Shown here piece after piece: positions 350 through 9,063 of a DNA stretch of 36,581 nt (position 1 is the stretch's first letter; each line of letters starts with the position of its first letter). This DNA is from a virus (taxonomy: Duplodnaviria > Caudoviricetes), in IMG/VR virus record IMGVR_UViG_3300008339_000210, positions 1 to 36,581 of that record. One strand, written 5' to 3'. Position numbers and translations under genes: made by a program. Under the pieces are notes generated by a model that made no database searches, had not been told where the DNA came from, and saw only the letters and a list, made by a program, of their open reading frames with translations.

Positions 350-540
350 AATAGGTTTTCTATCTCTTGTTTTACTTGTTGCCAATATGTCCAACTTGCC
401 CCATAATCTGTTTTGGTGTTAATAGTGTTTTTTATTAACTCATCAACTGCTATTAATGCACATTGCTTGGCAAAAAAGGAGTTACCATTTGCTTGGATAT
501 ATTTATCTAATAATTTTATTGCTTTTTCTTTAGGATTCAT
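334..540 (-). CDS. hypothetical phage protein
   Basis: ATG at 540; MNPKEKA...AKQCALIAVDELI...YWQQVKQEIENL, a pattern common in phage small ORFs. Confidence 0.7.
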   Translation of the reverse strand: MNPKEKAIKLLDKYIQANGNSFFAKQCALIAVDELIKNTINTKTDYGASWTYWQQVKQEIENLLWNPI

Positions 541-736
541 ATAGTTTTCTTGTTTCTTTTTCCAAAATGACCATAACACGGTAGGCTTTCTCATAATCTT
601 TTTTGATATAATACTCGTGGTCAGCAAGTGCTTCAAAAACTGCTCTAGCTGCTACCCATGCACAGTGTGTTTTTAGCTTTTTATCTTCAATAGGCATTGA
701 CTCTTTCAAGTCTTTAGCAATTTGTCTTGGTGTCAT
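530..736 (-). CDS. hypothetical protein
   Basis: 68-aa ORF tightly coupled to neighbours. Confidence 0.65.
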   Translation of the reverse strand: MTPRQIAKDLKESMPIEDKKLKTHCAWVAARAVFEALADHEYYIKKDYEKAYRVMVILEKETRKLYES

Positions 737-2776: not shown

Positions 2777-2968
2777 TTAGTTTAAATGGTCTCTATATGC
2801 TTCACAACCATCACATTCAAACTGATAAAGTGAATATTTTTCAGCAACTTTTTCACTTTTAGGTTGAGGGGTATAATGAACACCACAAGAAGGGCAAGGT
2901 TTCATAGTTACCAAATGGGTATTTTTAGTTTTTGGAAAATATTCTTTCCAAGTAATTTGTTCTTTCAT
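2777..2968 (-). CDS. small zinc-ribbon protein
   Basis: CPSC...CDGC. Confidence 0.65.
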   Translation of the reverse strand: MKEQITWKEYFPKTKNTHLVTMKPCPSCGVHYTPQPKSEKVAEKYSLYQFECDGCEAYRDHLN

Positions 2969-3348
2969 ATCAGATTTTCTAAAACGTAAGTGATTGCAGC
3001 TTCGTATGCTTCTGTTGGTGAGTTTGGAATAGTTCCTCCGATGTCGCTTTGAGTAGTTCCCTTTGGGCTTAATATATGGTAATTAAAATAATCATTTGAC
3101 CACTTAACATCTACATCTTTAGTAACGCTAATCCAAATACCATGCTTCTCATACAACCACATTACTGTCTCTGAAATGGTTGGTGCTTGTATTGTTGTAG
3201 ATAGCTTATAGTTAGCATTATATACACCGTCTTCATTATACCAGTTGAAAAGTAGTCCTAATTTCTTAGCCTCTTCAACTGTTTTTGGTTGAGGAAAGTC
3301 TTTCTCTTTCAACAACCTTGCTAACGGATAACTTACTGGTGTGTTCAT
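2965..3348 (-). CDS. hypothetical protein, paralog family A copy 3
   Basis: LARLLKEKDF / APTISETVMWLYEKH / PTEAYEAAITYVL. Confidence 0.8.
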   Translation of the reverse strand: MNTPVSYPLARLLKEKDFPQPKTVEEAKKLGLLFNWYNEDGVYNANYKLSTTIQAPTISETVMWLYEKHGIWISVTKDVDVKWSNDYFNYHILSPKGTTQSDIGGTIPNSPTEAYEAAITYVLENLI

Positions 3349-3454: not shown

Positions 3455-4060
3455 TTATTTGTTTAAATTTATTCCCAAAGTAAATCTAACAATAGGTTTT
3501 TGTATTGTATTTAGTTCAACATTTAACCCGGTTGAAATTATATTTTTACAATATGATAATCCAAAAATATAGTTGTTGTATACGTGTTTATAAACGTTGT
3601 TATTTGACAATATCCAATAATACGGGGATTCATTGGTGCCATAAGATAACTTTTCTATAAGCAAATAATTTGATTGGTTTGTGGTTTTAACCAACAGTCC
3701 TGTCATAAAATAAGCACTAAATTTAGGTAAAAATTCATAACTTGCACCTATATTAGTGCTACTAATATTTACTTCATCATAGTATGATGTGTGGGGAGTA
3801 AATCTATCTCCAAAATAGGGGGTTGATGTAGGTGCACACTGTTTTTTAAAACCTTTGGTTTCAAAAATATAATTGAAATTGTGATTTATTCCAACTTTTA
3901 ATTTTGAATTAGTGTTAAACCATAGACCAATTCCATATGAGGATTGAGGAACATCAAAAAATCCTTTATTTCCTATGGGAGTTATAGTTTTGTTTATCCA
4001 TAGGTGTTGACCCACTATTGTGTTGGGTATCAACAAACACAACCAAATTATTTTTTTCAC
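3455..4060 (-). CDS. secreted protein, probable outer-membrane beta-barrel
   Basis: N-terminal signal peptide MKKIIWLCLLIP; alternating beta-strand pattern; C-terminal VRFTLGINL. Confidence 0.6.
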   Translation of the reverse strand: MKKIIWLCLLIPNTIVGQHLWINKTITPIGNKGFFDVPQSSYGIGLWFNTNSKLKVGINHNFNYIFETKGFKKQCAPTSTPYFGDRFTPHTSYYDEVNISSTNIGASYEFLPKFSAYFMTGLLVKTTNQSNYLLIEKLSYGTNESPYYWILSNNNVYKHVYNNYIFGLSYCKNIISTGLNVELNTIQKPIVRFTLGINLNK

Positions 4061-4149: not shown

Positions 4150-6036
4150 TTAGTTGGATAATGGTAATTTAATTGTTGGATGTGATTGGTAGTTTTCTAA
4201 AGTAAAGTCAGTATTGATATAAGTGAATATCCCCCCACCAACTCTCATTTGGTTATTTTCATTAATATTTAATTTAGGTAACTCAAACGGTTCTCTTGTT
4301 AATTGTTCTTTGATTGGTTCAACATGGTTTAAATAAAGGTGTGTATCTCCTAAATTACCTATCAGTTCATCAGGAATCATATTTACTTCTTTGGCAATAA
4401 TTTCAAGTAATAGTCCGTAAGATGCTATGTTGAATGGGAGACCTAAACCAGTATCTACTGAACGTTGATTCCACATTAATGAGATTGCTCTGGTTGGGAT
4501 ATTTAATTCATTCATTCTACTCGTTAGAGCCAGCTCAAAATCTAAACCAATACCTTCATATTGTTCTTTATTTGATAAGGCTTTTTCATATTCTTCATCG
4601 CTTTTATTGACAAAGAATAGTCTTTCTTTAACACTCAACTCTCTTGTATAAACTTGAAATCCGTAGTGACAAGGTGGAAGAACCATTCCATCCAGTTCAC
4701 CTACATTCCAAGCATTAACCATTAGTCGTCTTGAGTCTGGATTTGTTTTAAGGTCACGGATTAGGATTGATATTTGGTCTACATAAAGTTGATATCTCCA
4801 AACATATTTAGATTCATCATAATTTAACCAATTAAAAACCCAACCATTATATGGTTTGGTTGAATTAGAATTGAGTCTATAGGATATATACGTTGGTTTT
4901 AAATTATATTTAATAGCAAAATGTTTTTGACATATTTCAATTACTTCTTCCCCAGTATTTATATTTTTAGCTATGAATGGTTTATAATGTTTAAGAGTTA
5001 CATTTTCATATTTAGGAAGAAAATAACAAGTATCTTTAGAATAACAATTAGAACCATAATAATCTTTATCTAAATCAAATTCTTTCGGATTTAATACCCA
5101 TTTATTAAAATTAGTTATAGTTTTTATGTCTTCTAAAAAATATTCAAAACATAGCCATCTACTATCAACAAATATACCTTTTTCTCCATAAAATTTATAA
5201 AAAGGGTTTGAATGTCTATAACACCTGGTTATCATGTTATACCATAAATCATAAGCTTGTTTATAATAATTAATATTTTTATTTGGGTTTCCTAAAAAAG
5301 CTACATTTTCAATATAAGGTTTATATTGATTAACTACCTGTCCCCTTTTAATGTTAGGACGAGAAGCAATTTTAATATAACCATTAGATAAAAATTGAAC
5401 TAAATACTTAGAATTATTTCCTCCTTCTACTTTTTGTATAACAACATATTCTTCTTGGCTTTTATTACTGTAAAATTTCTTTCCTATAAAATTATCTTTT
5501 TCATCTTTTTCTATTTCCAATAAAGGAAAACTGATATTAAGTACTGATTCTTTCTTAATTTTTTTTTCTATCATTATTGGTTTGTATGTTTTCCATCTCC
5601 TCCATCCTGCACCATATATTTCCCCCAACTCACCCCACTTCTTAGCAAACTCATCATCTGTTTTTATCTGTTCAATAAATTCTTCTTGAGTCATTCTTCT
5701 CACTTCAATATTACTACTTTCATATTGAAATGTTTTTTCAACATCAGGGTAGGCATTACAATAATTCTTATAAGAATCACCATCCCAAATATGTACACCA
5801 TTTTCAACCAAATACTTGATATTAGTATCACCTCTTAAAAACCAAAGTAACTCAGTTACAATTGACTTCCAATGCATTTTCTTGGTTGTGAGTAATGGAA
5901 AACCATCACTCATTTTATGTCTTATTTGTCTACCGAATACCGATATTGTACCACCATTTCTTGTTTCTTTTTTTGTACCATTCTCTAAAATATCTTTTAG
6001 AAGGTTCTGGTAGTCTAAGTCTAATTTATTCATCAC
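4150..6036 (-). CDS. thyA: thymidylate synthase with in-frame HNH endonuclease insertion
   Basis: [29 protein letters not shown] catalytic Cys, [20 protein letters not shown]. Confidence 0.95.
4783..5592 (-). mobile_element. HNH homing endonuclease domain inserted in frame in thyA (boundaries approximate)
   Basis: 270 codons between WRRW and VDQI; [40 protein letters not shown] plus a C-terminal NUMOD1-like helix-turn-helix segment. Confidence 0.8.
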
Positions 6037-6286
6037 TGTTTATTTTAATTTCTGTGTAGTATTTTGAATTTATTGGTTTATTAGAGTACTTTTCGAATCG
6101 TTTTAAGTCTTTTGGTTTCCAAAAAAAGAATTTTATTTTTAACCAAAGGTTAATAAATTTATTGCTATGCCAAACAGTTGTGTTATTAATCTTTGTTGCA
6201 ACTGTTTTTGTTACATACGGAGCATATATAATACCTGATTTTAATTTGTTTGGTGGTATGGGTGATATATTATCGAGTTTGTTCAT
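6026..6286 (-). CDS. hypothetical protein; ThyA-like start, capsid-like YAPY motif
   Basis: ATG at 6286 (ATGA overlap): MNKLD...GIIYAPYV...[17 protein letters not shown]. Confidence 0.7.
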
Positions 6287-6399
6287 TTTTTCACCCATTT
6301 AATTTTAATTTTAGTAGCAATCCCTTCCCATTCACAGATACAGTAGTGAGTAGATGTTTCCCAACTAATCCATTCGTACTGTTTATCGAGTTTGTTCAT
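6270..6399. repeat. exact 17-nt direct repeat ATGAACAAACTCGATAA (minus strand) at 6270-6286 and 6383-6399
   Basis: read directly; both copies are gene starts. Confidence 0.9.
6283..6399 (-). CDS. 38-aa ORF (not in ORF track)
   Basis: [38 protein letters not shown]; coupled at both ends. Confidence 0.55.
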   Translation of the reverse strand: MNKLDKQYEWISWETSTHYCICEWEGIATKIKIKWVKK

Positions 6400-6679
6400 A
6401 TTGTTTAATTGTATCTTCCAATTGATAAAACATTTGTTTAATTCTCATACCTAATTCATATGGGTCGGAATGTTTTACCCCTTCCAATGTGATTATGTGA
6501 TTGGCTCTAAACCATTGAGGTGTTTTTGATTGTTTTTCTTGTCCCCAAATATCTTTAGTTCTCCTAAAACCTACGTCGTGCATTGTAACTAAACAATCAA
6601 ACCTAATTTCACAAACTCTTGTTGTATTAGCTTCAATTTCAGGTACAGGTTCTATTTCTATATTATTAATTTTGTTCAT
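6383..6679 (-). CDS. hypothetical protein
   Basis: ATG at 6679 (MNKINNI). Confidence 0.65.
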   Translation of the reverse strand: MNKINNIEIEPVPEIEANTTRVCEIRFDCLVTMHDVGFRRTKDIWGQEKQSKTPQWFRANHIITLEGVKHSDPYELGMRIKQMFYQLEDTIKQYEQTR

Positions 6680-6766
6680 ATTAATCTTTTCCAAATAGTT
6701 ATTACAGCTTTTGCCTGTGGTCCTTTAAATTTTGACCATCTATCAATCCAATGTTGAATTTCTTCT

Positions 6767-7258
6767 TTATCCAAGCACTTCACCATGTTCAACGGCTTTT
6801 AAGTGTATTAATTCATTTTCCAAATTATCCAAAACCATATTAATGTGTTTGCAACCATCAGGAAGAAACCAAATTTCTCTCATCCAATTGTCCCAATTGT
6901 TGGATACCAATTCAATAAATTTTTCATCATTACCCCTATTTCTATATCTTTCAATAAATTCATCTTTTCTTCTACTATTAGGGTAGACCAAATAAAAGAA
7001 TATACATTCATTTAAAAGAGCATCACGAACCTCTTTATGTGATGAAACAAATATAAATTCGTACTTACCAATATTTTCTTTAATGTGGTTTATATAATTT
7101 TTAGGAAACTCAGGGTTTCTAATTTTATTTCCTTCATTATCAATAACCCAACTAAAATTTGATGAATCACTATCCAATGTGGTTTCTTGATGTTTTTGAT
7201 GATAGGTTGTTTTTCCTGTACCTGGAAATGCTGATATTATTTTTGTTCTGTATTTCAT
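6767..7258 (-). CDS. P-loop kinase-like protein
   Basis: N-terminal IISAFPGTGKT Walker A, then LDSDS. Confidence 0.75.
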   Translation of the reverse strand: MKYRTKIISAFPGTGKTTYHQKHQETTLDSDSSNFSWVIDNEGNKIRNPEFPKNYINHIKENIGKYEFIFVSSHKEVRDALLNECIFFYLVYPNSRRKDEFIERYRNRGNDEKFIELVSNNWDNWMREIWFLPDGCKHINMVLDNLENELIHLKAVEHGEVLG

Positions 7259-7578
7259 TATTCAATCTCTTTATATGTTATTGATTTGGTTTTATATTGG
7301 TGGGCTTGTTCTAACAGATCCTTATGTGTTTCAATAACTTCGAGAGCATCTTGTTCACACCAACACTTGTAATCTGAGGTACCAAATGGTCCTACATATT
7401 TTAATTGTTGTTCCTGTGTTCCCCAAATCATTAAAGAAGTTATATTAATGTCTTTCCAAATATTCGCATTTTTCTTAAACCAACCTCCTATACATTTCTT
7501 AACTAACCTTTGCGGTATGTAGAGTTTTTCACCGTTATTTAATTCTTTAATTTTGATTCTATATTTGCAGTTACTCAT
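7258..7578 (-). CDS. hypothetical phage protein
   Basis: 106-aa ORF, KYRIK...YIPQR. Confidence 0.7.
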   Translation of the reverse strand: MSNCKYRIKIKELNNGEKLYIPQRLVKKCIGGWFKKNANIWKDINITSLMIWGTQEQQLKYVGPFGTSDYKCWCEQDALEVIETHKDLLEQAHQYKTKSITYKEIE

Positions 7579-7851
7579 AACTTTCTATTGTTTGTTCATT
7601 GATTCTAATAAATTGTTCATCGCCCCCATAATTGTATCACCTACGCCATACAGGCAAGGGTCAACATTTTCTTTTAACCATTCCTCTAATTGATAACTAA
7701 CTTCTTCAGTATTTACCTCTTGAACAAATCCAGCATCTTCTTCAGCATTAAATACAACATACTTACCACCATATCTCATGGTAATTAAAGTTAATGGGTA
7801 AATGTCTTCCCATTCTTTATAAATTCTTTTACTCATAACTTTCTATTGTTT
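7571..7851. repeat. exact 23-nt direct repeat ttactcataactttctattgttt at 7571-7593 and 7829-7851
   Basis: read directly; brackets ORF 7585..7836. Confidence 0.9.
7585..7836 (-). CDS. hypothetical protein
   Basis: 83-aa ORF flanked by direct repeats. Confidence 0.7.
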   Translation of the reverse strand: MSKRIYKEWEDIYPLTLITMRYGGKYVVFNAEEDAGFVQEVNTEEVSYQLEEWLKENVDPCLYGVGDTIMGAMNNLLESMNKQ

Positions 7852-8191
7852 CGTTGTTATATATTATTGTGATTAGTTTGGTTGGGATATTTTCCCAATC
7901 AATTTTAGTATCACTTCCTTTTAGTGCTTGATGTAAGTTATTCTTAAAGTATTGCATATCTCTAATTTCATTTCTTTCATCATCACTCAACTCTTTTTCC
8001 TCAATCTTTAATCCCCACTTTTCAGAGAACTCAGGGTCTGTTTTACATTTATTGATGAACTCTTCTTGCGTTAATCTATATCCCAATTCAGTCATTTTTT
8101 CCTTTGACATATTAGGTAAGATTTTAGCATCTTCAATTAAATAATTCTTATAAGCATCACCAACAATCTGATTGTATTTTTCGTTATTCAT
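7829..8191 (-). CDS. ThyA-insert-derived mini-protein, copy 1
   Basis: GDAYKNY, TQEEFINKCKTDPEFSEKWG, KELSDDER, NIPTKLI match ThyA insert segments. Confidence 0.8.
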   Translation of the reverse strand: MNNEKYNQIVGDAYKNYLIEDAKILPNMSKEKMTELGYRLTQEEFINKCKTDPEFSEKWGLKIEEKELSDDERNEIRDMQYFKNNLHQALKGSDTKIDWENIPTKLITIIYNNETIESYE

Positions 8192-8444
8192 AGTTTTTAA
8201 TAATATCATCCAAAAACTCTTTCAAAAGATAATCAGGACAAGGTAAAATATCAAGTCGGTGAGCAATTTCTGTTAATCCAAATTCTTCATCCACCATTAA
8301 TTCCTCTCTTAATGATTCGGCATCTTTCTTTGTTGGTTTATTCCAATATCCAACAAAGTGAAGTATATCCATCATATCACCCTCTTGTGTTGGGTCAATT
8401 ACAATTAAACCGTATTTAATTTCTTTTGGGTTTAAGTTATTCAT
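8184..8444 (-). CDS. hypothetical protein
   Basis: 86-aa ORF, ILHFVGYW...DEEFGL. Confidence 0.7.
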   Translation of the reverse strand: MNNLNPKEIKYGLIVIDPTQEGDMMDILHFVGYWNKPTKKDAESLREELMVDEEFGLTEIAHRLDILPCPDYLLKEFLDDIIKNYE

Positions 8445-8706
8445 AAATTTCTATTGTTTCGTTGTTGTATGTTATTGTGATTAGTTTGGTTGGGTTTTGT
8501 TTGAATAGATTGAATATATTTAACTCATCATCGCTCAACTCTCTTTCCTCAATCTTCAATCCCCACTTTTCAGAGAACTTAGAATCGGTTTTACATTTGT
8601 CGATGAATTCTTGGTATGTGTTAGACTTAAACAATTTTCTAGCAGACTTCTCAGAATATTGTCGATACGCTTCCATCATAATCTGATTGTATTTTTTGTT
8701 ACTCAT
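8437..8706 (-). CDS. ThyA-insert-derived mini-protein, copy 2
   Basis: KYNQI..EAY, EFIDKCKTDSKFSEKWGLKIEERELS, NPTKLITITYNNETIE. Confidence 0.8.
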   Translation of the reverse strand: MSNKKYNQIMMEAYRQYSEKSARKLFKSNTYQEFIDKCKTDSKFSEKWGLKIEERELSDDELNIFNLFKQNPTKLITITYNNETIEIYE

Positions 8707-8740: not shown

Positions 8741-8959
8741 TCATCTCAGACGGGTATCACGGTAAATATATTGCTCAAATGCTTTTATTTGGTCATCTGA
8801 TATTTGGCATAAATTGTCAATGATTTCATATGGGTCAACATCTCTAACAAGCATTTGAATAACTCTGTTAAAGGTTGCTGAATTTTTGTATCGTTCTTTC
8901 CCATTTTTGAAACGAGCAATACATTCATCTGTTTTGCGGTAAAATTCTTCCTGTGTCAT
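8741..8959 (-). CDS. hypothetical protein starting MTQEEF
   Basis: 72-aa ORF. Confidence 0.65.
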   Translation of the reverse strand: MTQEEFYRKTDECIARFKNGKERYKNSATFNRVIQMLVRDVDPYEIIDNLCQISDDQIKAFEQYIYRDTRLR

Positions 8960-9063
8960 AATATTTGTTTTGATTTTTTATCACTATCATTTTTAATAAT
9001 CTTGGTTTGAGTATAATTTTCATACGCATCATCAATAATCTGATTGTATTTTTCGTTATTCAT
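8956..9063 (-). pseudogene. truncated third mini-ThyA copy (35 aa)
   Basis: MNNEKYNQIIDDAYENYTQTKIIKNDSDKKSKQIL*, stop overlaps the ATG of MTQEEF. Confidence 0.6.

Follow-up and report, generated by a model that had tools for sequence, protein, structure and literature searches.

Small phage proteins derived from thymidylate synthase share exchangeable loop modules with the enzyme

What could a phage gain from a thymidylate synthase that has lost its catalytic core? The question is raised by two small open reading frames (ORFs) in a 36.6-kb virus record (hereafter the window, i.e. the whole stretch of DNA that was analysed). The tightly packed minus-strand genes of the window include those for GroEL, glycosyltransferase-like proteins, a tRNA nucleotidyltransferase and the thymidylate synthase (TS) ThyA. 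The nearest cultured matches are the Flavobacterium phages vB_FspM_immuto (61% for GroEL and 55% for the ThyA type), which makes a Bacteroidota host likely, as far as sequence relatedness can tell. The window thyA gene (4150..6036, minus strand) encodes a long-form TS that is interrupted in frame by an HNH-like insertion and has two variable slots, V1 and V2; V1 is contained in a small-domain insert (5632..5781, minus strand), whereas V2 is the insert of a strand–insert–strand segment (4471..4662, minus strand). Mini-protein A (120 residues; 7829..8191, minus strand) combines the small-domain helices of ThyA, two ThyA-derived strands and a C-terminal strand of its own, and also has two variable slots, filled by a V1 module of 23 residues (8072..8140, minus strand) and a V2 module of 27 residues (7892..7972, minus strand). 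Mini-protein B (89 residues from its ATG; 8437..8706, minus strand) is a diverged paralogue with a short V1. The layout is identical, at 100% protein identity, in a separate 46-kb assembly (locus L001).

The original prediction described both ORFs as four ThyA blocks, in the order of ThyA and joined directly, with variable loops at the ThyA positions and all catalytic motifs absent. For mini-protein A this description is accurate. Mini-protein B fits it less well: it reads MEAYRQY, not GDAYKNY, and its second loop is almost gone. The catalytic motifs PCH, QRS and GELG.YG are indeed missing from both proteins, as is the dUMP-binding core, and a Pfam search gave no PF00303 match in either. Their relationship to ThyA is nevertheless well supported. 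The first half of mini-protein A matches the window ThyA with an E-value of 2e-9 (pairwise BLASTP), its two-block score against ThyA is 151 (mean of 55 and maximum of 76 in 200 shuffles) and its second half alone gives p = 0.004 in a shuffle test; the corresponding two-block score of mini-protein B is 113, compared with 52 after shuffling. At the DNA level, the mini genes and thyA are linked by the repeats D3, D6 and D17. Finally, the profile of the mini-protein family aligns with the ThyA profile with a probability of 99.4 (E = 2e-21) in one alignment with one long deletion. Profile and sequence comparisons thus confirmed that the mini-proteins are core-deleted, non-catalytic ThyA derivatives.

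The idea that they are built only from insert segments did not survive this comparison. Two core strands of ThyA, one on either side of the second insert, form part of blocks 3 and 4, and block 1 together with slot V1 aligns with the small-domain insert of Enterococcus faecalis TS (PDB entry 3uwl), so that block 1 is not phage-specific. The deletion joins WG to a strand which in ThyA also starts after a glycine, with similarity at the codon level; microhomology can therefore explain the junction without the two inserts being adjacent in space. Nor are the two ORFs the full set, since a third, truncated copy of 35 residues (8956..9063, minus strand) carries the mini start followed by the first residues of a V1 allele known from P0004, P0135 and P0137.

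Mini-protein A ends in a 14-nt stop/start junction (7833..7846, minus strand) that couples it to the next gene, and further copies of this junction are found at 8441–8454 and 7575–7588. The gene at 7585–7836 is bounded by two of these copies and may therefore be an inserted cassette; the junction at 7575–7588 also precedes the gene at 7258–7578. Just upstream of thyA, three ORFs (6026–6298, 6283–6399 and 6383–6694, minus strand) open with a sequence like the start of thyA (repeat D7), which suggests, on the basis of sequence likeness, that the duplicated thyA start may be an entry point for new genes. Promoter and terminator scans gave signals at the level of shuffled sequence, and no Rfam match was found between positions 4000 and 10000 of the window.

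The mini-protein is predicted to adopt a stable helix-plus-three-strand fold: the model (pLDDT 82, pTM 0.62) shows four helices, a strand, a helix and a hairpin. The ThyA prediction reached a pLDDT of only 54.5. A fold search of the PDB with the mini-protein model gave no clear match (best E of 0.41; best Z of 3.8), a sequence search of the PDB with the family profile returned nothing under an E-value of 0.47, the viral fold library contained only three uncharacterized proteins of uncultured phages as matches, and the ESM Atlas gave no usable match. Neither Pfam nor PHROGs has a family for the mini-proteins, and two queries of the GenBank phage collection retrieved none. A scan of prokaryote genomes with the mini-protein yielded one 20-residue match among 189 candidate stretches, and the PADLOC defence models gave single weak matches in 3/137 family members and none for the window protein. 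Our literature search found no paper that describes the family or that presents ThyA as a trigger of defence; a mention could be hidden in subscription papers or bioRxiv supplements, which lay outside this search. PMC13001434 mentions TS as an expressed gene, and PMC13092281 places a TS domain inside a validated host defence system. The family thus seems to be new, as had been supposed.

It is also large. We counted 5,104 proteins among 5,122 candidates, a few of these proteins being ThyA fragments or chimeras, and 425 representatives at 50% identity came from a profile-free search. The mini genes lie mostly upstream of a TS gene and on the same strand, from one to several per locus, and usually end in the 14-nt junction, which doubles as the start of the next gene. 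They are accessory, and most phages with a long ThyA have no mini gene nearby. A ThyA query led to 67 loci after de-duplication. Of these, five have a mini-like ORF in the fetched flank, a count that leaves out L070 (reached earlier through the mini-proteins) and includes some short flanks. Ten records that are at least 90% complete and were reached via ThyA or ligase matches contain no full-length canonical mini gene and one divergent one.

Where do the loops of the mini-proteins come from? We used patterns to extract the loops of ThyA (277 entries) and of mini-proteins (370 entries), with five chimeras left out; V1 could be read in 246 ThyAs and 304 mini-proteins, and V2 in 237 and 329, respectively. 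At 60% identity the loops fall into 150 allele clusters for V1 and 180 for V2, and 23/62 V1 and 26/84 V2 clusters of ThyA also occur in mini-proteins, in samples that are biased towards the query alleles. The V1 module of mini-protein A is identical at 63/69 nt to V1 of a thyA gene from another phage (L021), and 26 of the 27 residues of its V2 module are those of V2 in the ThyA of L014; neither resembles the corresponding loop of the window ThyA, the V1 allele of which recurs in mini-proteins of other phages (e.g. P0020 and L057). Elsewhere, the DNA identity of shared loops rises to 80/81 and 81/81 nt and falls in the outer flanks. V1 and V2 assort freely. These observations show that thyA and mini genes exchange slot contents at the DNA level, at flanks that are conserved. 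Chimeras between thyA and mini genes occur in both orientations (five in the loop set; P0127 and P0188) and may be assembly artefacts. As for the direction of exchange, ThyA-type flank residues are found in 9% and 22% of mini-proteins at two positions, while the reverse is seen in 1/192; transfer from thyA to mini genes may thus be favoured, although selection on the enzyme could hide the opposite movement. Within a locus, none of 94 module pairs are alike, but since only 1.4 matches were expected this gives no significant selection for within-locus diversity. The modules are not palindromic (mean folding z of −0.14 and −0.43 for 60 alleles per slot), and a search of 15 mini-bearing records, five of which are at least 90% complete, revealed no reverse transcriptase.

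The original prediction proposed that the mini-proteins mimic, modulate or supply loops to the phage's own ThyA. We therefore compared the two at 26 loci with both genes. The loop of the mini-protein is the allele of its own ThyA in only 2/62 cases (V1, 0/26; V2, 2/36); the two V2 matches, which are probably one event, are not significant (permutation mean of 0.54, p = 0.09). By comparison, 27/83 mini-protein loops match any sampled ThyA. Co-occurrence with an insert-bearing ThyA had also been named as a check, and was found in part: the 53 distinct mini loci comprise 27 with a two-insert ThyA, nine with a short insert-less ThyA, one with ThyX and 16 with no TS gene in the fetched DNA, so that the identifiable TS gene is an insert-less ThyA or ThyX in 10/37. 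The ThyX locus has six full mini genes. In G004 and G005 (records 75–76% complete) the short ThyA is the only ThyA match; ThyX was not found in five records checked, which leaves G002, G015 and G041 (66–83% complete) without a clearly identified TS gene. The scaffold dN/dS of mini-proteins beside an insert-less TS is 0.14, compared with 0.13 beside an insert-bearing ThyA. They are slightly farther from the family consensus (0.82 versus 0.86 and 0.69 versus 0.76; p = 0.06 and 0.08), and partial mini-proteins account for 12/33 beside an insert-less TS versus 10/51. At L011, L067, L099, L008 and L078 the TS gene has been replaced in place by a short ThyA or ThyX, and in both loci tested (L011 and L078) a GIY-YIG endonuclease adjoins the TS gene.

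The loops are not confined to the two slots. A V2-type module, with flanks mostly of the same type, occupies a C-terminal site in 26/192 ThyAs, and 16 of these 26 modules match the V2 pool. Furthermore, one V2 allele is found together with its flanks within a hairpin of an RNA ligase of the T4-Rnl1 type (PF09511): the 120 pattern matches yielded 95 ligases that could be parsed, and 21 of these carry it. A database search with this region of the ligase gave 837 matches, the best 120 of which are all ligases. In L068 (4407–5012) and L185–L304 the ligases carry a fixed V2-type module of 45 residues directly after the KxDGS motif. The flanks of the module are those found throughout the V2 slot, and ligases without the insert lack them, from which we infer that it came to the ligase from ThyA or a mini-protein. 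RNA ligase genes often lie less than 10 kb from thyA, a closeness that by itself can account for the landing sites of the modules. The ligase-type module occurs once each in 12/67 records (five ligases, two C-terminal ThyA sites, one ThyA V2 site, one canonical mini-protein and three other ORFs), cases too few to establish one copy per genome as exclusive. Tandem V2 modules are present in the mini-proteins P0202 and P0256. V1 alleles or small-domain-only offshoots also turn up in other small ORF families (L076, 18190–18978; L002, 3074–3397; L089, 3742–4098; L306–L309), one of which has a Cys/His-rich segment, and in P0245 the start of a dNMP kinase is fused to a mini-protein.

A lack of purifying selection had been named as grounds for refutation. 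Such selection is seen, with the proviso that all of the following dN/dS values are Nei–Gojobori estimates from non-independent, recombining pairs. The ratio is 0.04 (bootstrap 0.01–0.10) for the strand specific to the mini-proteins, 0.30 for the shared helix, 0.54 for the C-terminal tail (with an interval reaching 1.14) and 0.21 between mini-proteins A and B, while the ThyA core gives 0.07–0.09. Within loop alleles it is 0.11–0.17, values biased low by the choice of pairs with at least 60% protein identity; this constraint could date from the time that the loops spent in ThyA, or may reflect folding only. For the ligase-borne module we obtained 0.02 (with synonymous sites near saturation), compared with 0.24 for the ligase segment that follows it. 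Taking together the mismatch with the own ThyA, the insert-less TS neighbours, the C-terminal ThyA site and the RNA ligase, the loops behave as portable, selected peptide modules, and there is no need to invoke a decoy, a modulator or a reservoir for the own ThyA.

The module is constrained on several carriers, and the mini-proteins can do without an insert-bearing ThyA. What is selected is therefore most plausibly a function of the module, exerted in trans. Our preferred explanation, to which we give slightly less than an even chance, is that the mini-proteins are folded carriers that display refillable modules in trans against variable host targets. A core-deleted ThyA derivative would have kept its two slots, which homologous recombination at the short conserved flanks would refill from a pool of hundreds of modules, while the stop/start junction would likely add and remove whole mini genes. 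The mini-proteins would be expressed and each module would bind something, the putative target being a host protein that differs between strains, such as a defence or takeover factor. Extra mini copies would be kept for the modules that they add, i.e. for a wider repertoire, and ThyA and the RNA ligase would be passengers, with modules on tolerant surface loops. More tentatively still, and possible rather than probable in our judgement, large phages of the Bacteroidota type could share a library of hundreds of 20–35-residue effector peptides, housed on exposed loops of essential enzymes (RNA ligase and at least two sites of ThyA) and in dedicated display mini-proteins and swapped by recombination, as a natural peptide display for counter-defence or host takeover.

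Four other explanations have to be weighed against this display of modules. The mini-proteins could be near-neutral by-products of a recombination hot spot at thyA, spawned by unequal crossover and the junction, with selection acting only on folding and translational coupling. We consider this unlikely. It would account for the reciprocal chimeras (if these are not assembly chimeras), the many mini stubs and fusions, the accessory nature of the family, the junction that doubles as a gene start and the GIY-YIG and HNH endonucleases in or beside TS genes, but folding alone can hardly produce the very low dN/dS of the mini-specific strand and of the ligase module, and up to six full mini genes have been kept beside ThyX. 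The mini-proteins could instead copy a ThyA surface, formed by the loops or by the helices of the small domain, and sequester a host sensor that recognizes the phage enzyme, as would be consistent with a small-domain block nearly unchanged between ThyA and mini-proteins, with the many allele states and with the fact that the mini genes usually precede the TS gene on its own strand. A decoy of this kind is improbable as the main role, given how seldom the loops are those of the own ThyA, the persistence of mini-proteins beside TS genes lacking both inserts, the conservation of modules in RNA ligase and the lack of any paper found on ThyA as a defence trigger.

The exchange of loops between mini and thyA genes, which had been predicted, was borne out, and at L080 a loop matches that of its own genome at 81/81 nt. 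Together with chimeras in both directions, this could mean that the mini genes are kept chiefly as a source of loops for gene conversion of thyA, in the manner of antigenic-variation cassettes. We nevertheless find a reservoir for the own ThyA quite improbable as the main role: the flank residues leak chiefly from ThyA to the mini-proteins (even if enzyme selection could mask the reverse), the mini genes are intact and constrained at mini-specific residues, they persist without a recipient and most long-ThyA phages lack them. Least probable of all, in our estimation, is that the mini-proteins bind ThyA, whether of the phage itself, of the host or of a competing phage, through their strands or helices, and thereby modulate or poison the dimer or the dNTP-synthesis complex. 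In favour of such binding, two ThyA core strands are kept and the mini gene lies inside the TS transcription region. However, alternating strand positions have become polar or charged in the mini-proteins (Q to K in 89%, Y to E in 92% and M to T in 83%), while the other face is hydrophobic, and we take the switched positions to be those that face the TS dimer interface. Mini-proteins beside ThyX or an insert-less ThyA, with unchanged scaffold constraint, also speak against a modulator of the own ThyA.

How does this compare with known systems? Long-form TSs (PDB entry 3uwl; 4dq1 and 1lca are TS entries of similar length; PF00303) share with the mini-proteins the insert aligned with block 1 and V1 and the strands of the TS core. 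The phage family differs by its members without any catalytic motif, by a second insert that is absent from the solved structures shown and by hundreds of exchangeable states.

The antigenic-variation cassettes of Neisseria pilS and Borrelia vls are partial copies that neighbour a main gene. As in the phages, variable segments are traded between these copies and the main gene, with conserved sequence on either side. In contrast, mini genes are intact, with coupled starts and a dN/dS of 0.04–0.30 on two scaffold blocks; they rarely match their own main gene and persist without it, and their segments reach unrelated proteins. Rickettsia palindromic elements and inteins are likewise in-frame insertions at surface loops of housekeeping enzymes, but the modules show no hairpin signal, comprise many unrelated sequences and match no intein domain. 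Diversity-generating retroelements and the hypervariable segments of the T-even adhesin gp38 are further phage examples in which variable segments are displayed on a conserved scaffold; here, however, no reverse transcriptase is found, entire segments are exchanged for unrelated ones and the segments are carried by intracellular enzymes and by offshoots of these. No known kind among those tested combines a housekeeping enzyme that has hypervariable loops of the cassette type, many paralogues built on the scaffold of this enzyme and the same modules fixed in an unrelated enzyme. Should the modules be binders, their pool would amount to a list of several hundred short effectors of phages, which would point to unknown Bacteroidota host targets or defences, and the mini scaffold would be a naturally evolved two-loop display protein.

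Variable loops are also seen elsewhere in the window. The HNH-like insertion in ThyA (about 270 residues, in-frame, 4786–5583, minus strand; phrog_2081, E = 1e-47) sits in a third variable loop. It has no Pfam intein match and no Rfam intron match, and could therefore be either a fused endonuclease or an unrecognized splicing element. Other paralogue families with conserved blocks and variable loops lie at 1311–1712, 1709–2122, 2965–3348, 334–636 and 530–736 (minus strand); the three tested have no Pfam match.

Finally, the ThyA of the cultured Flavobacterium phage vB_FspM_immuto (Immutovirus; MW353175-7), in which no mini gene was found, has V1 (an allele also present in the L081 mini-protein), V2 and the C-terminal V2-type module. 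Because these cultured phages carry the modules in ThyA, the idea is directly testable. Sibling immuto isolates from one host (L310, 6001–7272; L311, 5992–7263) have swapped a further ThyA loop, and their gene content differs before and after thyA.
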